Shown: positions 16,046 through 64,000 of the stretch, in pieces
Layout: every line of letters starts with the position of its first letter
Numbering within the stretch: position 1 is the first letter of the stretch
Assembly: GCA_020343435.1 (NCBI GenBank)
Contig: CP070794.1
Coordinates: 583,712-647,711, forward strand
DNA length: 64,000 bases
Direction: 5' to 3'
DNA from: an archaeon
GTDB lineage: Archaea > Nanobdellota > Nanobdellia > Pacearchaeales > UBA284
The notes under the pieces: model-generated
Databases searched by the model: none
The model's input: only the letters and a program-made list of their open reading frames with translations
Told to the model about the DNA's origin: nothing
Program-made: the position numbers and the translations under genes

Positions 16046-17095
16046 AATTCCAATAATTACAAGGAGTATCTCTAACGTCCATAATGCCCAAACAACATCA
16101 GTTTCCCTAACCTTGTGATTTGGTTTTATCTTCTTAATAAATCTTAAAAAGAAATGTGTTAAACTATATATCTTCTTAGATTTTGGTTCTAAATATCCAT
16201 CTTTTGTTGGTCTTCCAAAGTTTTGAGCTTTAAACTTACTTCTCCATTTTAAAAATCCTTCAATTATAAATGGTATAAATAGGAATAACGCGAATTGTTC
16301 CATATTACCAAAAACAGCAAAACAAGCTACAAGCGCACCAATCCCAAACGTTAAACTATCTCCTGGGAAAACTTTCGCTGGGAATTTATTAAATATCAAA
16401 AATCCAATTAAAGCTAAAATTGCAATTGCAGCAATCAAAGCTAACCAAGGTTGTCCTGTTGCTAAAGCTAAAACACCAAAACCAGCAAACATTATTATCC
16501 CAAACCCTGTTTCTAATCCATTATATCCTGCTAAAAGATTAAATCCATTTGTTGCCCCAACAACAGCTATTGTAACAACTACTAAAGGATAAGCTAATCC
16601 AATCCAAACTTGTCCAAGAATAGGCAAACTAATAATATCAATACCAGCATTCATAACAACTAATGGGATTGCTGCTGGCAATGTGAATAACATTCTCTTC
16701 CAACCCCCAATCCCTCTTCCTTTTCTACCTAAAAATTCAGCAAATATTTCTTTATCTTTAGTAACTTTCATACTTAAAACATCATTAAAGAATCCAATTA
16801 ATGAAGCTACGATTACTGTAATTATTATAACAAAAAGTTCTGTAGATTGTGAAGAATTCTTAAAAACAAAAGTATTAAAGAATATGTAAACAAAAATAGC
16901 AGTTATGATTGCAACTATGGGCATCATCCCCCCAAAATCAGAAACCTCTCTTTTATCATACTTGTTCATATCTTTACCAAGTATTCCATTCCTTCTAGCC
17001 ATCCCAATCCAGTTTTTGGTAAAATCAAAACTAAGTAAAAAAGCAACAACTAAACAAATTACTAATATTAATCCGTTTATAAGCACATTTACCAT
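16031..17095 (-). CDS. aglH: UDP-GlcNAc:dolichyl-phosphate GlcNAc-1-phosphate transferase (AglH / Alg7 / WecA-MraY family)
   Basis: This polytopic membrane protein carries 'FNDVLSM', 'NGFNLLAGYNGLE' and 'FPGDSLTFGIG' PNPT-family motifs. Its start overlaps the aglB stop, so the two are likely co-transcribed. Confidence 0.8.
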   Translation of the reverse strand: MVNVLINGLILVICLVVAFLLSFDFTKNWIGMARRNGILGKDMNKYDKREVSDFGGMMPIVAIITAIFVYIFFNTFVFKNSSQSTELFVIIITVIVASLIGFFNDVLSMKVTKDKEIFAEFLGRKGRGIGGWKRMLFTLPAAIPLVVMNAGIDIISLPILGQVWIGLAYPLVVVTIAVVGATNGFNLLAGYNGLETGFGIIMFAGFGVLALATGQPWLALIAAIAILALIGFLIFNKFPAKVFPGDSLTFGIGALVACFAVFGNMEQFALFLFIPFIIEGFLKWRSKFKAQNFGRPTKDGYLEPKSKKIYSLTHFFLRFIKKIKPNHKVRETDVVWALWTLEILLVIIGILLVI

Positions 17096-19845
17096 AATGG
17101 GAATGGCAGATCACTTTCTCTGCTTAAGTAACGTTTAATTGTTTCTTCAGGAACTTCAAAATTAGAAGGATAATCAACCTTCCATATCTTTATTGGCCCG
17201 TTCATTTGACCACCAGCAAATATTAAATCACCAACATCAAGATTATAATTTGCTTTTAGTTCTGCAACAACAGGAGCAGGTTCTTTATACCCTAATTCAA
17301 AGTTTTCTGAATCATTAAAAAGATATAGTTTTGCCCATAAAGCATTCATTGTTTTTTCAGAGAGATACATCGAAGCCCCGAAGTTATTTAATCCTTGTTG
17401 ATCAACACTGGGCACAATATAGAAACACCCTTCAAAAACATTAGTTTTATTTCCAGTTAAATCAAATAAATCATTATTAATATAAACGTATCTTACTGGA
17501 ATCATATATTGCTGTTCATTATATATCAACACAGCTTCCACCATTTTAATATTGTTATCTTGATCTGTAGTCATTATAAATGCAGGAATCCCAGCTTTTT
17601 GTTTTGGGAATATTTGCCCCATATACTTAAAATCAGCATCCAACAGTGTTCCACCCAGATAAGCATATTTTTTCTCATCTCTTGTTTCTTGTGTTTGTTT
17701 TGGATCCATAACAAAAGTTCCTATCCATGTATACCTATCCCACCCAGTTTCATCAGAACCAATGCTACTATAAGCACTAGCTTTTCCAATATCAGTGGAA
17801 TCTATCAAAAGATAACTAGTATTGTGAGCATATAAAAATTCTAAAGCATCTTTTTCTTCAGGCGTCGTTAAAACATATCTTGCCATAAGATAATTCCAGA
17901 ATCCTCCATGGCCTGCATGGCCCCCATCAAGAATTGTTGGTCGTTCTCCTATACTCTGTACCCAGTATCCATAATCCCACCAATGTGCAAAAATAGAATC
18001 TTCAGTTGTGTTTTCTCTAACCCAAGACATTGCTCTTTGCCATTGTTGATTATAAGCACCTGGAATAGTAAATTTAGCACTGTTTGCAGTTCTTTGTTCA
18101 TAATTGATAAATGTAATTATTAATAGAATAGCAATAACTATTACTAAACACCACACAACAATCTTTCTTAATTCATCTTTTGATTTTGCAAATGTAAATA
18201 ATTTAATCGGCAGGAATGAAAATGCTAAAATCATAAAAGGACTTATTATGAAGAATAATCTTATCCCTCCCCTTATTGAAATTATTGTCCAGAAAATTGC
18301 TGAAATTAAAAGCAAGTAACCGAATTTTATATTTTTGAAATCATCAGATCCTTCTATGTAAGATTTTATGTAGGCATATAATAAATAAACAATAAAAATT
18401 ATTGGCCCCGCAAAATACAAGAACTTACTAAAACCATTTTCTCCATTAAACACACTTCCTGGAGAATGTCTTGAGAACAATAAGAACACTAAAAATATGA
18501 AGAATGTGATTAAAAGACCTGTCCTTAATTTCTTATTCTTAAAATGTTGTATTGCTGAGTAGAATAATAAGATAACTCCAATGAAGAATAGCCAGAAAAC
18601 AGTTTTTGAAAAGCTTGCTAAGAGTTCAACCAAGTAAGGAGCTCTATTTTCAGCAACAGTCAAACCAATTCTACCAGTACCAAAAGGATGAACTAATCTA
18701 GAGGTTATTTCTGAAAATAAACTTCCAATTAGTGAGGGATTAATAATAAGAGCAACTATAAAAGCGACAATAACTGATATGATTATGCTCACTATGCTTC
18801 TCGGTAGTTTTATATTCTTTAATTTCTCTTTAATCTTCGTTTCAAACAGAATTTTATCAATAATCATGAGTATTAAGATTATGAAACAGAACCCAACATC
18901 AGACATACTCTTTAAAGCAGCATTCAAACTAAACGCAGGATCTATGGCTGCAATTGTAATAAGGCTTAAAATAAACCACATAATGTAAACCATAAATTCT
19001 TTTTTCCTTATTTTCCCAAACAAGAAAGCTATGAGCATTGCCAATCCTACAATCATGAAGATATACTTGCTTCCTCCAGCCCATGAAGACATCATTAATC
19101 CTGTAGCAATTCCAGCGATTACTGAAAAGATCATTGCCTTTTTACCCTTAGAATCCCAACCTAAAACAAAGAAATAAAGTGCTAAGAATAAAAAGAATAT
19201 GCCTGAAGATTCGTGTTCTGGAATTCCCGCGATGGTTCTATGTAACATATCTGGGATAATTGCAAAAAAAGCCGTAGAAACTAAAGCAGCAATATTTGTT
19301 TTCGTTTTATCAAGGAATTTAGCAAAAACTCTTCTTGAAAATAAGAAAAAGAAAACTATCGCTAAACAAAAAAAAACTGCAGGAAATAAAATCGCAGATA
19401 ACTTAAACTGTATATTTGGACTAAATATTGATGTTATTTTGTGGAATCCCGCAATAAGATATGAATGAAGATTATACGACGCCTCTACTCCCAATGGCGC
19501 AGCTCTCATCATATCTGGATTCAAAGGAGATCCATGAGTTGATATTTCTTCAGCAATTCGCGTATACCAGAATGGATCCAAATCTGGTCCAAGCGTATAA
19601 TTTCCAGTTGTAACATCTTTTAATCCAGAAACATTAGAGATTCTTATAAAAAAAGCAAGAGCGATTATTGCCAATAATATAATCAAGATTATCAATGGCC
19701 ATTTGGGCTTAATAGCACCTTTCTTTTGAGGTTTAGATTCAACAATAACTTTCTTAGGTTCCTCTTTTTTAATTTCAACAGGTTTTTCTTGAATTTCCTC
19801 TGTTCTTGGTTCTTCAATTTTAATATTTTGAGTAGTTTCTTCCAT
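17089..19845 (-). CDS. aglB: Archaeal oligosaccharyltransferase AglB (STT3 homologue)
   Basis: The 918-aa protein has about 13 N-terminal TM helices with 'GPDLDPFWY' in the first loop. The diagnostic 'HWWDYGYW' (WWDYG) motif is followed by a soluble C-terminal domain. The N-terminal cytosolic extension is K/E-rich. Confidence 0.92.
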   Translation of the reverse strand: MEETTQNIKIEEPRTEEIQEKPVEIKKEEPKKVIVESKPQKKGAIKPKWPLIILIILLAIIALAFFIRISNVSGLKDVTTGNYTLGPDLDPFWYTRIAEEISTHGSPLNPDMMRAAPLGVEASYNLHSYLIAGFHKITSIFSPNIQFKLSAILFPAVFFCLAIVFFFLFSRRVFAKFLDKTKTNIAALVSTAFFAIIPDMLHRTIAGIPEHESSGIFFLFLALYFFVLGWDSKGKKAMIFSVIAGIATGLMMSSWAGGSKYIFMIVGLAMLIAFLFGKIRKKEFMVYIMWFILSLITIAAIDPAFSLNAALKSMSDVGFCFIILILMIIDKILFETKIKEKLKNIKLPRSIVSIIISVIVAFIVALIINPSLIGSLFSEITSRLVHPFGTGRIGLTVAENRAPYLVELLASFSKTVFWLFFIGVILLFYSAIQHFKNKKLRTGLLITFFIFLVFLLFSRHSPGSVFNGENGFSKFLYFAGPIIFIVYLLYAYIKSYIEGSDDFKNIKFGYLLLISAIFWTIISIRGGIRLFFIISPFMILAFSFLPIKLFTFAKSKDELRKIVVWCLVIVIAILLIITFINYEQRTANSAKFTIPGAYNQQWQRAMSWVRENTTEDSIFAHWWDYGYWVQSIGERPTILDGGHAGHGGFWNYLMARYVLTTPEEKDALEFLYAHNTSYLLIDSTDIGKASAYSSIGSDETGWDRYTWIGTFVMDPKQTQETRDEKKYAYLGGTLLDADFKYMGQIFPKQKAGIPAFIMTTDQDNNIKMVEAVLIYNEQQYMIPVRYVYINNDLFDLTGNKTNVFEGCFYIVPSVDQQGLNNFGASMYLSEKTMNALWAKLYLFNDSENFELGYKEPAPVVAELKANYNLDVGDLIFAGGQMNGPIKIWKVDYPSNFEVPEETIKRYLSRESDLPFPLW

Positions 19846-57042: not shown

Positions 57043-58225
57043 GAGTTAACTGCTTTGATGTGAGAAATCTCTCTTTTCCAGTTTTCATATCCCTTAGTTT
57101 AAACTTTTTCTTTTTTATTTCTTCAGAACCAATGAAAACAACATAAGGGATCTTTTCTTTATTTGCATATTCTAAAGCTTTTGAGATTTTATCCATAATA
57201 AAACAAGAAATATTATTTTTTCTTAATTCTTTTACAATTTTAATAGATTCTTTATCCTGATTTATTGATATTACAATACATTTAACTCTATCACTATCAA
57301 CTTTAGCTATTCCAGTTATCCTATCTAAACCAAAAGACAAACCAACAGCAGGAATCTGTTTATTTAATAATCTTCCAACAGAATCATCAAATCTTCCTCC
57401 ACCAACTAATGAGAATTTGTATTGTTTTGAATTTATTTCAAAAACATTTCCAGTGTAATAACTTAAACCCCTTGCTAAAGAAGCATCAAATTCAACATTA
57501 AATCCATAATCTTTACATAATTTTATTAATTCTTTTACTTCATCTGAACCTTTGAATTCCTCTTCTGTAAAAAAACTTAAATCTTTTTTAATGAAATCTA
57601 AAATTTTCTTAGCTTTCTTATTCCCAGTTACTGAAGAAATATTTTTTTCAATTTCTTGTCTTGTTAACTTATCCAGTTTATCTAATTCTCTCAAAACTTT
57701 TTCTTTATCTGAAATCCCAAATCTTGTTAATAAATCATCTAATAATTTTTTGTTATTAATTCTAATTTTAACTTCAATTTTTAATTCTTTGAAAATATCA
57801 TTAACAACTGCCAAAACTTCAGCATCAGCTTTTATTGAAGAATCACCAATAATATCAATATCACATTGTGTAAATTCTCTATATCTTCCTTTAGCAACAG
57901 GTTCATCTCTAAAAACAGAACCAATCTGATATCTCCTAAAAGGCAATTTTAAATTAGGGTTTTGTTTCAACAATCTTGCTAATTGAAAAGTAAACTCATA
58001 TCTTAAAGCTAGGGCTCTTTTTCCTCTATCTTTTAACTTGAAAATATTACTTACAGCTTCATCTTGTAAATTATCCCCTTTTACAATCTTTTCATACTCA
58101 ATTATTGGGGTCTCAATAGGGCTAAAGCCATATAATCTAAACCATTTTTCAATGATCTCTTTAACCTTAATTCTCTTTAGTGCTTCAACACCAAGAATAT
58201 CTCTAAAACCCTTTACAGATTCCAT
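57035..58225 (-). CDS. hisS: Histidyl-tRNA synthetase
   Basis: It carries 'VKGFRDILG', 'RYEFTFQLAR', 'FRDEPVAKGRYREFTQCDIDIIG' and 'GGGRFD'. Confidence 0.92.
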   Translation of the reverse strand: MESVKGFRDILGVEALKRIKVKEIIEKWFRLYGFSPIETPIIEYEKIVKGDNLQDEAVSNIFKLKDRGKRALALRYEFTFQLARLLKQNPNLKLPFRRYQIGSVFRDEPVAKGRYREFTQCDIDIIGDSSIKADAEVLAVVNDIFKELKIEVKIRINNKKLLDDLLTRFGISDKEKVLRELDKLDKLTRQEIEKNISSVTGNKKAKKILDFIKKDLSFFTEEEFKGSDEVKELIKLCKDYGFNVEFDASLARGLSYYTGNVFEINSKQYKFSLVGGGRFDDSVGRLLNKQIPAVGLSFGLDRITGIAKVDSDRVKCIVISINQDKESIKIVKELRKNNISCFIMDKISKALEYANKEKIPYVVFIGSEEIKKKKFKLRDMKTGKERFLTSKQLTLI

Positions 58226-58239
58226 TCTCTTTTGAAAAG

Positions 58240-58311
58240 GGCGGTAACCGGGAATTGAACCCAGGCCTCACGGACCACAACCGTACGCGCTACCATTACG
58301 CTATTACCGCC
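58240..58311 (-). tRNA. tRNA-His (anticodon GUG) with genome-encoded G-1
   Basis: Hand-folded: G(-1) plus GCGGTAA/TTACCGC acceptor with C73 opposite G-1, anticodon arm TACGG-TTGTGGT-CCGTG and T-arm CTGGG-TTCAATT-CCCGG. It lies 14 nt upstream of hisS on the same strand. Confidence 0.85.
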
Positions 58312-58335
58312 ATATTTAACTTCAAATTCTTGAGA

Positions 58336-58343
58336 ATTAAAAA
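58336..58343 (-). promoter_or_regulatory. TATA-like box for tRNA-His (and possibly hisS)
   Basis: Minus-strand 'TTTTTAAT' ends 24 nt before G-1. Confidence 0.4.
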
Positions 58344-58479
58344 CCTTTGTAATATAAGCAAAGCTAGAAAATCTAATTGGAGTGATGAACACCCCCCCAC
58401 AGTTTACTTTGCTTTTCCATAGAGAAACCAATGAAATTTGGCTTTTAAAATTAACGGTTTGTTCATATAACCTATTTAT

Positions 58480-58562
58480 ACACACATATTAAGTATTAAC
58501 TAACAATATTAAGTATCTATTAGAAAGCTTTATAAGTATAAAAGTACACACAAATTAAGTAT
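58480..58562 (+). repeat. Repeated operator-like motif upstream of the giant ORF
   Basis: The 17-mer ACACACA[T/A]ATTAAGTAT occurs at 58480-58496 and at 58546-58562, with 1 mismatch; the second copy overlaps the ATG. The 11-mer ATATTAAGTAT occurs at 58486-58496 and 58506-58516, exactly 20 bp apart. Confidence 0.5.
58528..58535 (+). promoter_or_regulatory. BRE/TATA-like box for the giant surface-protein gene
   Basis: 'GAAAGC-TTTATAAG': the box ends 24-25 nt before ATG 58561. The AAAGC flank is the same as at the tRNA-Val and tRNA-Ser promoters. Confidence 0.5.
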
Positions 58563-61500
58563 GGATTTCAGGGGCAGAAAAAAGGAGTTAGTTAAACTCA
58601 GAAAGATAAGTAAAAATCATTCTAGCGAGAGAGAAATCTCTGGAGTCATTAAAAGAGAGATACTCCAAATTAAAAGACTTCCTAAAATAAAAGTAGAAAA
58701 GGAAAAAAGTTTTCAAAATACTTTAAAAATACTCATTCCCCTTGCTGTTATCCTCTTAATTCTCTTTTTATTTTTAGGTCCACAAATAGTAGATCTTACT
58801 GGATTAACTATTCGAACTTCAGTAACATATCAAGATGATCTTAATCTTAATTTCACAAATCTGACATCCTATCAATGGGTTTTAGAAAATCATGGTCAAT
58901 TAAAAAGCGCAAGAGTATCAGGAGAACTGACTCTTATTGGAGAGGGTTCTGTAAGGATTTATTTAGGAGATAAATTAATCCTTAATAGTTCTCAACTAAA
59001 TGAAACGATTAGTGAAAACCAGGGAGGATTTATTACTGGCCTCTCTGTTTTAGAAGGAGAAGCAACAGAAACACAAGGAACAGTAGAACAAACTGTAACT
59101 GAAGTTGAGGTTCCAGTTGAGAAAGAAACAGTTCCTAAAGAAGATTTTTCTGCCCCTGAAGAGGAATCCATACAAGCAGAAGAAACTCCTGAAGAGGAAC
59201 CAGTAGAGCCCTCTCCTGAAGAAATAGTAGAAACCCCTCCCCCTAAAGAAGAAGCAGAAGGAAAAAACATAACAGAAGAAATCAGCAAAGAACCAGTATT
59301 AGAAGAAGAAATCCCAGCTGAAAATATTAGTGAAGGACCAATATTAGAAGAAGAAAACATAACAGAAGAAAGCAATATTACTATTGAAGAGAACATCACT
59401 GAACAAAACATAACTTCAGAAAATGAAACCAATATAACTCTAGAAGAAAACATAACAGAAGAAATCAGCGAAGAACCAGTATTAGAAGAAGAAAACATAA
59501 CTGAAGAGATTGAAGAAATTAAAGAGACAATAAAAATAAGAACCATCAAATTTTCTGATATTTGTGTTGATACATGTAATTTAGAAGGTTTAGATCTAAA
59601 CAAAGAAGAGTATACTTTAAGATTTGAAGTAGAGAACTCAACTGGTTTTTTAAATTCAATTAGTTATGAGATCTATGAAGTAGAAGAAATTATAGAAGAA
59701 AGAGTAAATTACACTCAATATAGGAAAATACAAGATGATCCTAATTTTGATGTATTTATCAATTCTAGTTTTTTAGAAGAAAATAATTTATTTGTTATTT
59801 TTTATCATGATTCTCCTGAAGCTCAAAAAATTAGAGTTAATGGAAGTGTTGATTTTAATTTAGATAAAGAAATTTCTTTACAAAACGAATTTGTAACCCT
59901 TATTGTTTATAACTACAACAACGAATATTTTGAATTAGCTGTTGGAAACGAAACTGAAATTCTAGTTTTCGGAGAAGAACCTCCTTCCTTTGAAGAAATT
60001 TCTTTCAAAAGAAGATTAGATTGTCATAGATGTGGTCAACATAAAGTTCCTCCTTTAACTGAGGTTAATATGATAATAACAGCAGAGTTTGAAGGAACTT
60101 TACAAAATATAACTTTCTCAGATTATTATAGTAATGAATGGCAAGTAACGAATTCTAATAACGGAACAATAGAAGAATATAATGATACTTATAATAAAAT
60201 ATCATGGTTTATTGAAAGTGCAACAAACACAATAGAAAGATCATATATAATATCTAGTCCTGAGAGAACTCTTCCCCCTACTAAATATTACTTTTTCTCA
60301 GAACTAGGAAATCAAACAAGTGATATATGGGATGTTATTGTCTCAGATCCAACAAATAACAGGCAATACTATCTTCAAGGAGATTCTGGAACAGGTCCTG
60401 GAATAGCAGGATCTTTGCAATTAACCCAAGGTTCTGCAATAGCACAAAGAACCATCTTAAATGATGGTGAAGAAGCAATTTGGGTTAGATCTGCTTATAC
60501 TGTAAATACAACTCTCCCAATCCAGACTTTTGATGTAGAGGTTTGGTGTAATAGAACAGGAACAGCTGGAGGAGCAAAAGTCATATTAAAGGAGTTCAAT
60601 GTTTATGATTGTGCAGATTCTTCTTGTGCAGATAAAACAGCAGTTTGTTTTGTTACTGGTTTAACCCTTGATTGCTACTCTGCAATCCCAATAATGGTGA
60701 GCCCTTCATGTACATCTGTTGGTGAATATAATATTACCTTAGGAAGATATTTAGCAATGGGATTAACTTTAGATAAAAACAAAGCTCCTGGAGTAAACTT
60801 ATTCTTCAATGATTCTTCCAGTTATCCTTCACATATCAATTTAAAAGAAACATGGGCAGACCAGACTCCTCCCCAGATTTCAAATACAGCAGTTAATGCA
60901 ACTCTTGTAAATGTTAGTGATACTATCTGTATTAATGTTACAGTAACTGATCCTGGAACAGTAGATAAAGTATGGGCCCAAATAACTTCTCCAAAAGGAA
61001 CTGTAGGAAATTCTTCCTTCTTTTCTGATACAGGTTCTTGTGCAGGAGGAGCAGGAGATGATATCTATTCTTTAGATCTTGGTGCTGGAGAATTTGGGGG
61101 AAATTTAACAATTAATACAACTTTTGCTAATGATACTTCAACTAACGTAGGTAATGAAATACCTTGGCCAAATTTACAAGTTCAGGTTTTATCTTCAGAT
61201 CCAAATGTTACAATTAAATGGCCAACTAATGATTCTCAACATGGAAATGGAACTTTTTATGTTGTGTATAATGTTAGTGATAATGAAAATGTCTCTAATT
61301 GTTCTTTGATTAATGGGTTAACTCATACTATTCTTGAAACAGATGATACTATCTGGAAAAATGTTTCACAGATATTTAATAGAAATGTTGCTGCAGAAGG
61401 AACTTTTAGCATATATATTAATTGTACTGATGATGGTGGACATGTTGGTTCAAGCGAAAATATCACATTTCATCTAAATGCATCTAAAGCAGATATTTAT

Positions 61501-64000
61501 ACTAAAATAAAAGATTCAGAGTGGAATGATCTAAATACAACCATCGTTTTTGAACAAGAGGGATCAGAGATTTATAATAATACAGATGTAGAACATTATT
61601 TCACAGTTGATGATGGTTTTTATAATATAACAATAATGCCAGAACTAGCGCCAAATCAAAGTATTGGGTCAATTTACCTTGAGAATTTTAATTTAACAAA
61701 CAATATAGCAAGAAAACTTATAGATATTGATGGGCATACTAATTTCAGCAAATATAAGTTTCCAAGAACTTTTGCAATAGATCCAACAGCAATAAATTTT
61801 ACAAATGCAACAGTAACTTTTTACCCAATTGGGAGAAGATTATACAAATGTTCAGACTGGAACTTCACAACAAGCACTTGTCAAGGAGACTGGGTTTTAA
61901 TAGATCCTTACGTGATTCCTGGCCAAGAGTATACTTTAACTATTACTTCTGATGACCCTGCTCTTGGAGAAATTGTAATAACTAATGCTGAACATTTAAA
62001 TGAAACTCGTGATCTTATCTCAAATATTTATAATGAAACTAAAGCACAAGATGGAAACTGGTCAGAACCAATTTATCATAATGAATATGTTAGAGTAATG
62101 TTTATAACAAATCTTACTTCTGATAAAGATATTACTGTATATGTTAGAAACAATGGTTCAACTAATACAAGTATTGAAATTTATTATTTTAATTCAACAG
62201 AAAAGATAGATGAATTTCCAGTGATAAATGAAACAGGTTATTATAAAATTTTACTAACTAATATGACTGGTTCAAATGATATTTTTGATTTAAAAATAAA
62301 GGATATAGATAATAATTCTTCTGCATTTCTTGAATTTGATCATATAGTTGATCCAGTTCTTCTGCAACCAGAAGGAGATAATCAAGTAGGTTTTTTAGTT
62401 TTTCCATCAGACCCTCATTTTCAACAAGTTAGTGATGGTGATCCTAATACTTATGTTTATGAGCAAACTGCTCAAGTTTTTGACCTCTATGATATGAGTG
62501 ATACTTTCTTAACTGCAGGAACAGTTGTGATAGAGAATATAACAGTAACTGCTGTAGCTTATAGATATTCCGCTAATCAAAAAAGAATGCTGATTATGAT
62601 AAAAAGTGGAGAAACAGAAGACTTTAGTTCAGAATTTGTTCTTGGTTCTACTGCTGCTGAACAGAATTACACATGGACTACAGATCCAGGTAGTGTAGGA
62701 GGTAGTAGTGCTTGGACTGTTGATGCACTTGATCAGTTATTAGCAGGAGTAAAGCTTCCAGATTCAGCACCAGGAGCATATGTAACTGAATTTTATATTA
62801 CTGTGTATTATATCCCAGATGATATTGATCCAGTAGTCAATCTAAATTCTCCTATTGATAATTACAACACCTCAAACCAAACAATTGATTTCAATTGTAC
62901 TGTATATGATAATCTTCAATTAACAAATGTTTCATTATTTGGTAATTGGTCAGGGGGATGGCATAGGAATGAAACAAATACAAGTGGAATTAATAATACT
63001 CCTTATGTTTTCACAAAAACAATCCCAGAAGGAATCTATAAATGGAATTGTGAAGGTTGTGATTTCGCAGACAATTGTGGTTTTAATTCAACAAATAGAA
63101 CACTTACTATTGATACAACCAATGCAACTGCTTCATTTGGAGCAAATCCTGCAAATGAATCCACAGATACTGACGGAACAGTAACTTTTGATCTTAAATG
63201 TTCAGATAACTTTGTATTAAACACATTGCAGTTATGGACAAATACAACAGGAACCTGGCATGCAAATCAAACAAATTCATCTCCAATAAACGATAGCTAC
63301 TGGAATGTTACTGTTAGTGATTTAGCAGATGGAACTTATATCTGGGGAGTCTACTGTAATGATTCTGCTAATAATACCGATTGGACAGGAAATAGGACAC
63401 TTACTGTTAACACAGGTAACCCACCAACAATCGATGATATATCCCCTATCTCTGATCAAAGTATTACAGAAGGAGGAATAACTAATGTAACTTTTTTTGT
63501 TAATGTTTCAGATGAGCAAGGAACTGGAACAATAAATATAGTTAATGCAACATTTACAAAAACTGGAGATGATCAAAGGTTTAATGCAAGCTGTGAAGAT
63601 ATTGGAGATCTAAACTCAACACAAGCAAATTATTCATGTACTATTGGGGTATATTACTGGGATGGATCTGGAACATGGGATGTCAATGCTACAGCAAATG
63701 ATTCTACAGCATTAGTTTCAACAGCTTATAATGAAACTTTTGTATTACAAGAAACAACAGCACTTGAAACAACTCCTGCTACTTTAAATTTTCCAGTATT
63801 CATTCCAGGAGCAACAAATGAAACTGCAACCAATGATCCTTCTTTATTAAATAATACAGGTAATAAAAATATATCAGATGGAAGTATTGAACTTAATGCA
63901 ACTGATTTAGTAGGGATGCCCGATACTGCTTACTCCATTTATGCTTCAAACTTCACAGTTGATGTTGATACAGGAGGATCACCTCCTGCAGAATGTGATG
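58561..64000 (+). CDS. Giant membrane-anchored, heavily sequon-decorated surface protein (3'-partial, more than 1813 aa)
   Basis: I translated this frame by hand from ATG 58561 to the window end and found no stop codon. It is absent from the ORF track because it is open-ended. It has a basic N-terminus, one TM helix (ILIPLAVILLILFLFLGP), an acidic E/P-rich repeat region and then Asn/Thr/Ser-rich beta-type modules with conserved Cys/Trp. I counted about 100 N-X-S/T sequons by hand. Confidence 0.85.
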   Translation, partial: MDFRGRKKELVKLRKISKNHSSEREISGVIKREILQIKRLPKIKVEKEKSFQNTLKILIPLAVILLILFLFLGPQIVDLTGLTIRTSVTYQDDLNLNFTNLTSYQWVLENHGQLKSARVSGELTLIGEGSVRIYLGDKLILNSSQLNETISENQGGFITGLSVLEGEATETQGTVEQTVTEVEVPVEKETVPKEDFSAPEEESIQAEETPEEEPVEPSPEEIVETPPPKEEAEGKNITEEISKEPVLEEEIPAENISEGPILEEENITEESNITIEENITEQNITSENETNITLEENITEEISEEPVLEEENITEEIEEIKETIKIRTIKFSDICVDTCNLEGLDLNKEEYTLRFEVENSTGFLNSISYEIYEVEEIIEERVNYTQYRKIQDDPNFDVFINSSFLEENNLFVIFYHDSPEAQKIRVNGSVDFNLDKEISLQNEFVTLIVYNYNNEYFELAVGNETEILVFGEEPPSFEEISFKRRLDCHRCGQHKVPPLTEVNMIITAEFEGTLQNITFSDYYSNEWQVTNSNNGTIEEYNDTYNKISWFIESATNTIERSYIISSPERTLPPTKYYFFSELGNQTSDIWDVIVSDPTNNRQYYLQGDSGTGPGIAGSLQLTQGSAIAQRTILNDGEEAIWVRSAYTVNTTLPIQTFDVEVWCNRTGTAGGAKVILKEFNVYDCADSSCADKTAVCFVTGLTLDCYSAIPIMVSPSCTSVGEYNITLGRYLAMGLTLDKNKAPGVNLFFNDSSSYPSHINLKETWADQTPPQISNTAVNATLVNVSDTICINVTVTDPGTVDKVWAQITSPKGTVGNSSFFSDTGSCAGGAGDDIYSLDLGAGEFGGNLTINTTFANDTSTNVGNEIPWPNLQVQVLSSDPNVTIKWPTNDSQHGNGTFYVVYNVSDNENVSNCSLINGLTHTILETDDTIWKNVSQIFNRNVAAEGTFSIYINCTDDGGHVGSSENITFHLNASKADIYTKIKDSEWNDLNTTIVFEQEGSEIYNNTDVEHYFTVDDGFYNITIMPELAPNQSIGSIYLENFNLTNNIARKLIDIDGHTNFSKYKFPRTFAIDPTAINFTNATVTFYPIGRRLYKCSDWNFTTSTCQGDWVLIDPYVIPGQEYTLTITSDDPALGEIVITNAEHLNETRDLISNIYNETKAQDGNWSEPIYHNEYVRVMFITNLTSDKDITVYVRNNGSTNTSIEIYYFNSTEKIDEFPVINETGYYKILLTNMTGSNDIFDLKIKDIDNNSSAFLEFDHIVDPVLLQPEGDNQVGFLVFPSDPHFQQVSDGDPNTYVYEQTAQVFDLYDMSDTFLTAGTVVIENITVTAVAYRYSANQKRMLIMIKSGETEDFSSEFVLGSTAAEQNYTWTTDPGSVGGSSAWTVDALDQLLAGVKLPDSAPGAYVTEFYITVYYIPDDIDPVVNLNSPIDNYNTSNQTIDFNCTVYDNLQLTNVSLFGNWSGGWHRNETNTSGINNTPYVFTKTIPEGIYKWNCEGCDFADNCGFNSTNRTLTIDTTNATASFGANPANESTDTDGTVTFDLKCSDNFVLNTLQLWTNTTGTWHANQTNSSPINDSYWNVTVSDLADGTYIWGVYCNDSANNTDWTGNRTLTVNTGNPPTIDDISPISDQSITEGGITNVTFFVNVSDEQGTGTINIVNATFTKTGDDQRFNASCEDIGDLNSTQANYSCTIGVYYWDGSGTWDVNATANDSTALVSTAYNETFVLQETTALETTPATLNFPVFIPGATNETATNDPSLLNNTGNKNISDGSIELNATDLVGMPDTAYSIYASNFTVDVDTGGSPPAECD
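59266..59494 (+). repeat. Intragenic direct repeats encoding ENITEEIS(K/E)EPVLEEE
   Basis: Two 46-nt copies at 59266-59311 and 59449-59494 differ at 1 position. Shorter AACATAAC(A/T)GAAGA units (encoding N-I-T-E-E) recur in and next to this span at about 59356, 59405 and 59483. Confidence 0.85.

Follow-up and report, generated by a model that had tools for sequence, protein, structure and literature searches.

Large surface proteins rich in LamG, PKD, and immunoglobulin (Ig)-like domains are viewed, in passages of PMC10266531 and PMC6349945, as probable host-recognition or attachment devices of DPANN archaea. We analyzed a gene that begins near the end of a 64,000-nucleotide stretch of archaeal DNA (the window; positions 583,712 to 647,711 of contig CP070794.1) and encodes a predicted giant surface protein of this group of archaea. 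Its open reading frame (ORF) starts at ATG 58561, crosses the window edge, and, with the 3′ end located elsewhere in the assembly, predicts a protein of 1,874 amino acids (aa) that is anchored by its N terminus and densely covered with N-glycosylation sites. With moderate confidence, we propose that the gene encodes a modular surface glycoprotein acting as an accessory, strain-specific, glycan-shielded adhesin or lectin.

Several described systems resemble this locus. The DPANN LamG/PKD/Ig surface proteins, such as SVXNc_0801-0831 of Ca. Nanohalococcus occultus (Castelle et al., 2015/2018, in PMC10266531), are, according to passages of that article, also large, secreted or membrane-bound, strain-specific products of small-genome archaea. 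The same passages describe lectin-like jelly-rolls combined with Ig-like modules, genes that take up several percent of the genome, and a predicted role in host recognition or attachment. In contrast, the protein studied here has no LamG (PF13385) or PKD domain at threshold, although relatives have LamG; its defining modules belong to no curated family, and its sequon density is far higher. The SPEARE-type giants of Nanohaloarchaeota (Hamm et al., 2019, in PMC10266531) are likewise anchored, Ig-like-rich DPANN ectodomains with a proposed role at the host interface, and the passages on them give lengths of 5,000-9,400 aa, a VirB4/TraG-like ATPase domain, and a neighboring secretion ATPase. At 1,874 aa, our protein is shorter, has no sequence relationship to SPEARE, and yielded no enzymatic, catalytic, or ATPase domain in Pfam and NCBIfam scans.

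Archaeal surface-layer (S-layer) glycoproteins such as Haloferax volcanii SLG and Sulfolobus SlaA (PMC5744192) are comparable in that they are exported and beta-rich, undergo AglB-dependent N-glycosylation (predicted for our protein), and have sequons concentrated in surface proteins. However, S-layer proteins are core, abundant, and lattice-forming, while the family described here is patchy, mosaic, and multi-copy; and in place of a C-terminal or lipid anchor, our protein has an N-terminal signal-anchor with a cytoplasmic tail. In bacteria, giant repeat adhesins (the RTX proteins MpIBP and LapA, and SiiE) join an Ig-like extender to sugar-binding modules. The design logic is the same, with a cell-proximal anchor, a long extender or spacer, distal jelly-roll or lectin modules, and shuffling of cassettes between paralogues. 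These adhesins belong to another domain of life and use type 1 secretion, whereas our protein would use a Sec signal-anchor and has no RTX repeats. Its extender is not built of tandem near-identical repeats, and it has predicted N-glycans where the adhesins have Ca2+-rigidified repeats.

Surface proteins of Pacearchaeota and Woesearchaeota that are varied by diversity-generating retroelements (Paul et al., 2017 and Handa et al., 2016, in PMC6349945) come, as passages of that article have it, from the same clade and the same giant surface class. Unlike these targets, our protein has no C-type-lectin variable region at its C terminus. The genome contains no reverse transcriptase (PF00078) and no template/variable repeat pair, and the only DNA repeats are cassettes common to paralogues. 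Thus, retroelement-driven diversification of this gene was ruled out.

The open reading frame and its 3′ end

An earlier note on this DNA had described an uninterrupted plus-strand frame from ATG 58561 to the window end that the list of ORFs had missed. Translation of 58561 to 63999 gave 1,813 residues and no stop codons, an outcome with a chance of about 1e-64 given a stop probability of 0.078 per codon (genome GC content 31.6%). The gene is absent from the list because the frame is open-ended at the window edge, and it appears only if open-ended ORFs are allowed. Three listed ORFs that the note had taken for shadows of the gene, 58992-59603(-), 62927-63184(+), and 63036-63224(-), all lie wholly within it; the antisense ORF at 58992-59603 (203 aa) is the opposite strand of the GAA-rich segment encoding an acidic spacer. 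Homologue alignments span the protein from its first residues (M.F.GR..EL) through its last. On this evidence, the open frame is one real gene, predicted to encode a membrane-anchored surface protein that is N-glycosylated. The description of the gene as giant is relative, since it is the second-longest ORF of the genome and many relatives have 2,000-5,900 aa. Its GC content is like that of the rest of the genome, and a foreign origin was set aside on that ground.

To locate the 3′ end, we followed the frame beyond the window. The parent assembly is one record of 647,887 bp (C1), and the window stops 176 bases short of its end. Past the window the gene runs for 25 codons into a gap of 100 N that closes the scaffold. 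The final 72 bases before this gap are the exact reverse complement of C1:461231-461302, and this 72-mer occurs nowhere else in the genome; the last 36 codons and the stop lie at C1:461230-461122(-). The joined pieces stay in frame, adding "...NGQEQLYYCITPQLSTTLIAQEYNTTTLGSWTIKIT*" to give the 1,874-aa product with 104 sequons, of which the window covers 97% (1,813 residues). Alignments with thirteen relatives continue through the junction, that with P0003 covering residues 1517-1873 at 55% identity, and the 193-aa gene that follows the join is 37% identical (E 6e-27) to the gene just downstream of that of P0003. Since the overlap is exact and unique, relatives span the junction, and the downstream genes are homologous, we accepted the join, which supplies the end that the earlier note had left beyond its contig. 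A circular wrap of the ORF into the contig start was rejected: the record ends in 100 N, and the wrapped frame reads as an unrelated 12-residue peptide.

In the gene order after the join, our gene is followed by one for the small 193-aa membrane protein and then by one for a 1,737-aa, sequon-rich secreted protein. The 193-aa gene (C1:461096-460515(-)) encodes a signal peptide, a beta-rich domain, a C-terminal transmembrane (TM) helix, and a Lys-rich tail. Its homologue downstream of the giant gene of our protein's closest relative lies at L002:17777-18328. No family could be assigned to the 193-aa gene. As judged by these comparisons, it is a conserved small partner gene.

Modules and sequons of the predicted protein

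We retrieved 37 homologues, and those with a named source are mostly from metagenome-assembled genomes (MAGs) of Pacearchaeota and Nanoarchaeota; the closest are 1,300-3,100 aa long. A word-seeded search of 5.8 billion proteins found no full-length orthologue. As the best single local alignment covers only 21% of the query, the architecture is mosaic. Some relatives (P0006, P0007, P0010, and P0012) carry LamG domains, and beta-helix (NosD/pectate-lyase-like) modules are also found among relatives. With a profile of the central jelly-roll domain, 1,680 cluster representatives (clusters at 50% identity) were matched; for 1,108 the E-value was 1e-30 or lower, and most of the 1,680 matches are in proteins of 1,000-5,900 aa. 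Across the 41 related genomes, 9 carried the domain, at one to three copies each; they belong to 4 of the 26 genera, and 2 of the 11 high-quality genomes are among them. By these comparisons, the family is a large, uncurated group of mosaic giant DPANN surface proteins; our literature search found nothing specific to it.

The note had laid out the protein as a basic N terminus, one TM helix, an acidic spacer, and an Asn/Thr/Ser-rich exterior. This order held with one change: about 75 residues between the helix and the spacer form a folded beta block. Kyte-Doolittle windows exceeded 1.6 only at residues 50-66, with one borderline window at 695, and the ectodomain has a net charge of -185. The topology is therefore predicted to be type II, N-in/C-out. 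We take the N terminus to be a signal-anchor instead of a cleaved signal peptide because in relatives the same helix is preceded by longer cytoplasmic domains that are conserved.

The whole N-terminal anchor module, consisting of the TM helix, an LTG motif, the first beta block, the acidic spacer, and a block with a Cys pair, aligns with 12 relatives (alignment A3). An AlphaFold2 model built from 13 sequences has two confident beta blocks, at residues about 87-145 and about 321-375 (pLDDT 85-96), and a fold search with it found no significant match among solved structures (best E 0.3). The second beta block always co-occurs with the first, and its C265, T268, and C269 are invariant in A3. Between the blocks, the spacer consists of 33% Glu and 8% Pro, has a net charge of -52, and contains 10 sequons and "NITEE"-type motifs; its length and sequence differ among relatives.

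The LTG-type motif, [L/I/M]-T-G-[F/L]-x-[V/I]-x-E, occurs twice, just after the TM helix (58783-58806, residues about 75-82) and again at the start of the spacer (59035-59058, residues about 159-166). It is kept across the family, as G11 is invariant and T89 and G90 are nearly invariant in A3, and further copies in relatives follow hydrophobic stretches of amphipathic character. The motif might serve for processing or for docking.

The variable middle, which has weak, sub-threshold Ig-like (Big_7) Pfam hints, includes a cassette of 313 nt that is 85% identical in DNA to C1:16991-16679(-) and 80% identical to C1:237641-237299(-). These are two other surface-protein genes, and the remainder of the cassette-sharing genes has diverged. 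The high identity of the cassette between otherwise diverged paralogues suggests cassette exchange or recent gene conversion among surface-protein genes. The cassette holds a CxxC motif ("CHRCGQHK") and matched no family or structure. One of the genes that carry it is itself split by the assembly: a second sequon-rich giant surface gene lies at C1:238107-235474(-) and C1:488251-491020(+), with ends overlapping by 22 bp. Its two parts have 912 and 962 residues with 55 and 52 sequons, and it has in common with our gene both the 80%-identical cassette and Ig-like modules.

The jelly-roll is the signature of the family. It is 34-60% identical to 27 relatives (alignment A1), has a genome match at E 3e-52, and keeps H21, D40, R54, D119, and D140 as conserved columns. 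Foldseek comparison of the model with the PDB gave APC10/Doc1, carbohydrate-binding module (CBM) families CBM6 and CBM32, and discoidin as best matches, with CBM4 also found (probability 1.0, E 1e-4 to 1e-3, TM-score 0.43-0.58). In a viral library, the best matches were lectin-like domains of phage tail fibers, at TM-scores of about 0.5-0.58. Such scores mean likeness at the level of the fold only, and at that level the modeled domain matches the galactose-binding-domain-like beta-sandwich of CBM6, CBM32/discoidin, and APC10/Doc1. For residues 1130-1300 we found no Pfam match (CBM_6, F5_F8_type_C, or ANAPC10), and a PDB profile search returned nothing at E <= 10.

Distal to the jelly-roll and a linker, the Ig-like region gave weak matches to Big_3_4, Big_13, X25, and Big_7 and has a paralogue at C1:488945-489733. 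The C-terminal module is 28-56% identical to 13 relatives (alignment A2), among which "NNTGN" is invariant; a weak fibronectin type III match to the IL-21 receptor (E 0.03) was the best hit of the PDB searches. Self-BLAST revealed no internal protein repeats at E <= 1e-3, and no tandem DNA repeats were found within the gene, spacer included. Scans of the whole protein and eight segments against Pfam and NCBIfam gave no model at cut-off anywhere, and PDB sequence and profile searches with the whole protein, jelly-roll, C-terminal module, and cassette returned nothing significant. Domain and structure prediction by module, as proposed in the note, thus produced confident models for the N-terminal beta blocks and the jelly-roll but no curated family.

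We next compared the number of sequons, counted as N-x-S/T with x not P, with the number expected from composition-preserving shuffles. The 1,813 residues in the window hold 101, in agreement with a hand count of about 100 (roughly one per 18 residues) in the note, while shuffled sequences hold 29.6 +/- 4.6 (z = 15.4). In the full protein, 103 of the 104 sequons, spaced at about one per 18 residues, fall in the extracellular part. Of all Asn residues, 60% lie within sequons, and NxT is preferred over NxS. Control patterns (the reverse pattern, adjacent N-S/T, N-x-x-S/T, Q-x-S/T, and D-x-S/T) were at or slightly below chance.

Comparison with the proteome background, another check that the note had named, gave the protein the highest observed/expected ratio of its genome. 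It has 5.5 sequons per 100 aa and a ratio of 3.47; N-terminally anchored or secreted proteins have 2.17 per 100 aa (ratio 2.02), and cytoplasmic proteins have 0.37 per 100 aa (ratio 0.91). Among 140 representatives of its family (median 3.8 per 100 aa, ratio 2.24), the protein ranks within the top 1%. Few positions are kept: sequons common to at least half of the relatives number 1 of 11, 7 of 17, and 3 of 16 in three modules. Since most positions are turning over, selection appears to maintain sequon density more than site identity, as would be expected if glycan coverage mattered more than individual sites. The jelly-roll copy alone has 11 sequons (7.3 per 100 aa compared to a mean of 2.7 in the 27 relatives), which by sequence is a lineage-specific gain of potential glycosylation sites on a conserved fold.

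A single-copy gene for the oligosaccharyltransferase AglB lies about 39 kb upstream, close to the 40 kb given in the note. The claim that our protein is probably the major AglB substrate was not upheld. It holds 103 of about 1,636 sequons in the genome (6.3%), another protein has 116, and by count ours is one of some ten comparably sequon-dense, large exported proteins. Nonetheless, three marks of an AglB-dependent N-glycoprotein are present, namely predicted export, a sequon excess outside the membrane, and an AglB gene in the genome. The protein is probably very heavily N-glycosylated, with AglB as the presumed enzyme.

Feature coordinates, neighboring genes, and the assembly

Table 1. Features of the gene and related elements, in window coordinates (residue numbers refer to the 1,874-aa protein; pLDDT, predicted local distance difference test; pTM, predicted template modeling score)
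Feature	Position	Strand	Basis
AglB, STT3-family oligosaccharyltransferase	17089..19845	-	PF02516, 57 bits against a cut-off of 24.5, plus STT3/AglB core domain
Promoter element resembling a B recognition element (BRE) and TATA box, AGAAAGC TTTATAAG	58522..58536	+	Read from sequence
Coding sequence, residues 1-1813 of 1874	58561..64000	+	Open frame and homologues; continues to C1:647787, then C1:461230-461122(-)
Basic N-terminal tail, predicted cytoplasmic, residues 1-53, net charge +10	58561..58719	+	Composition
Predicted TM helix, residues about 54-76, N-in/C-out	58720..58788	+	Hydropathy and positive-inside rule
N-terminal module, beta block 1, residues 77-151, LTG motif at start	58789..59013	+	AlphaFold2 pLDDT 92-95 over about 87-145; conserved in 13 relatives
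Acidic spacer, predicted disordered, residues 152-320	59014..59520	+	pLDDT <50, no secondary structure
N-terminal module, beta block 2, residues 321-385, "F..iC.eTC.L...Y.LR.E" with conserved Cys pair	59521..59715	+	pLDDT 81-96
Variable middle, residues 386-1137	59716..61971	+	Coverage map; cassettes common to only one to six relatives
Paralogue cassette, residues about 485-588	60013..60324	+	blastn and tblastn against the genome
Signature jelly-roll "AEHL...FDHIVDP", residues 1138-1265	61972..62355	+	AlphaFold2 pLDDT 88, pTM 0.82; in 30 of 37 homologues
Linker without relatives, residues 1266-1399	62356..62757	+	Coverage map; only a sub-threshold Pfam match
Ig-like repeat region, residues 1400-1639, two diverged Cys/Trp modules	62758..63477	+	Staggered local alignments to repeat arrays of relatives
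C-terminal two-domain module, residues 1640-1874, "NNTGN" and "GQEQLYYC" motifs	63478..64000	+	Alignment A2; split by window edge, then by assembly gap

The promoter-like element is centered about 29 nt ahead of the ATG. Read by the spacing rule of archaeal promoters, this position suggests a leaderless or near-leaderless transcript. The flanking genes are those for histidyl-tRNA synthetase and a tRNA. The synthetase is 52-61% identical to those of Nanoarchaeota and Pacearchaeota MAGs, and the note's assignment of the DNA to a small-genome archaeon is supported, the organism being a DPANN archaeon of the Pacearchaeota type. A listed 90-aa ORF with a GTG start, at 58213-58485(-), overlaps the tRNA gene at 58240-58310(-) and is almost certainly spurious.

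The record carries 14 gaps of 100 N, at C1 15865, 19594, 78302, 84823, 125262, 235374, 347721, 356351, 461303, 472530, 488151, 512797, 519241, and 647788. Ends of non-adjacent pieces overlap exactly by 141, 136, 72, and 22 bp, and because of these overlaps we regard the apparent single contig as 14 contigs in arbitrary order and orientation. Therefore, arguments from gene order or GC skew are unreliable across the gaps.

Function of the protein and its tailed relatives

In the model that we favor, transcription from the TATA box, which lies about 29 nt ahead of the ATG, would yield a near-leaderless mRNA. The protein would insert through its single N-terminal signal-anchor, with hydropathy and charge placing the 53-residue basic tail inside and about 1,800 residues outside, and the single AglB would transfer lipid-linked glycans to many of the 104 sequons of the emerging chain. 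Next to the membrane, a beta-domain would be broken by the acidic, disordered, glycosylated spacer of about 170 residues; farther out would come exchangeable cassettes, the CBM/discoidin-like jelly-roll, the Ig-like modules, and the conserved C-terminal module. Through these parts, the protein may attach to a host cell or to some other surface by binding glycans or proteins there, while the dense glycan coat could act as a hydrated shield against proteases and viruses. We infer this stalk-and-head arrangement, the ligand binding, and the shielding from the predicted modules. Host attachment is plausible because the protein combines CBM-like and Ig-like modules, its distribution is patchy, and published views assign such a role to DPANN surface proteins; it would be an attachment protein of the kind expected in these archaea.

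Several points count against this model. Expression, glycosylation, and binding are all argued from sequence and models. No curated lectin or adhesin family was found at cut-off in Pfam or NCBIfam, the jelly-roll likeness is at superfamily level only (TM-score about 0.5), and ligand-binding residues could not be assigned. The genome also has other candidate attachment systems. In addition, the patchy detection may partly reflect failure of assembly at such genes, which would inflate absences in MAGs. Lastly, it is a 72-bp overlap, and not sequencing reads, that connects the two sides of the gap, and the natural population may contain another 3′ end, such as a tailed form.

Comparison of C termini revealed this tailed form in relatives. 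The C-terminal module recurs in 13 relatives, and in 10 of them (P0003, P0005, P0006, P0007, P0011, P0012, P0015, P0018, P0019, and P0023) the last strand ("GSW.I.I") is followed by a second TM helix, the sequence RRKKK, and a tail of two to four tandem helix-turn-helix (HTH) units resembling sigma-70 region 4. Three Pfam models score above their cut-offs on the tail of P0003 (L002:10001-16612), the closest relative, namely Sigma70_r4_2 (55 bits, cut-off 25.7), HTH_38, and HTH_23. At the N terminus, many tailed relatives carry a further conserved domain, cytoplasmic and about 100 aa long; the tailed proteins are predicted to have both ends in the cytoplasm and a giant loop outside. Our protein ends in "...GSWTIKIT*", where the TM helix of the tailed relatives begins, and lacks the second helix; three other relatives (P0013, P0026, and P0027) end at the same structural position. 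By tblastn, no second TM helix with an HTH tail was found elsewhere in the genome, and we found no report, in the literature searched, of HTH tails on the cytoplasmic side of giant surface proteins.

Other functions would account for parts of these data. An S-layer protein or main structural envelope protein, anchored, glycosylated, and forming the outer lattice, would typically be large, membrane-anchored, rich in beta and Ig-like domains, and extremely sequon-dense, as our protein is (general knowledge; review PMC5744192). We nonetheless consider this role quite improbable, since the patchy, accessory distribution of the signature module, found in 9 of 41 related genomes and only 2 of the 11 of high quality at one to three copies, argues against a core S-layer function. 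Moreover, the architecture is mosaic and without a full-length orthologue in our search, the genome encodes about ten similar proteins, no S-layer family in Pfam or NCBIfam matched any segment at E <= 5, and a long, disordered, acidic stalk on the membrane side is atypical of lattice subunits. Capture of environmental or host polysaccharides for uptake, with no role in cell-cell attachment, agrees with the fold matches, as the best of these include CBMs of glycoside hydrolases (CBM6, CBM32, and CBM4) and relatives carry beta-helix and LamG modules. However, the protein has no detected catalytic domain, the TM-scores are only about 0.5, and the same fold serves equally in protein binding (APC10 and discoidin) and in phage receptor-binding proteins, making nutrient scavenging a rather unlikely role in our estimation.

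The tailed relatives raise two further explanations. Our protein could be what remains, as a degenerate form or a decoy, of a surface-to-cytoplasm receptor that lost its second TM helix and HTH tail, non-signaling and possibly non-functional or being lost. That most relatives with the same C-terminal module are tailed, that our protein stops exactly at the strand where their helix begins, and that the genome has no HTH tail would all be expected of a remnant. But the 1,874 codons are intact, the tail-less form recurs in P0013, P0026, and P0027, and only 26 nt separate the stop from the next gene, leaving no remnant of a tail; the sequon enrichment, at the maximum of the genome and the top of the family, argues for continued selection. 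We consider this remnant explanation very doubtful. Alternatively, there may be an undescribed class of DPANN "surface-to-chromosome" receptors to which the gene belongs as a tail-less member whose ectodomain works alone as an adhesin. We consider this proposal speculative and on balance unlikely, and it would keep the adhesin function that we favor for the tail-less protein.

If the receptor proposal were true, contact of the ectodomain with a host or ligand could be coupled directly to DNA binding or to release of a transcription factor, through sequestration or regulated proteolysis, and episymbiotic archaea would possess, in this family, a gene switch that senses contact. Our tail-less protein would then show that the ectodomain suffices as an adhesin and that its extreme sequon load is a selected glycan shield. 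The cytoplasmic HTH tails on giant surface proteins make this a testable signaling hypothesis and are the most novel lead to come from the locus.

The analysis defines three conserved modules that no curated family covers: the split N-terminal beta module with its acidic spacer, the C-terminal module, and the jelly-roll, which alone has at least 1,680 cluster representatives. These modules could be expressed and tested on glycan arrays. The sequon enrichment is among the strongest pattern-specific enrichments likely to be met, and the protein is a good test case for glycan shielding in archaea. We know of no cultured representative of the Pacearchaeota- and Woesearchaeota-type DPANN archaea; for partner recognition by these organisms, the gene provides a concrete, nearly complete candidate.

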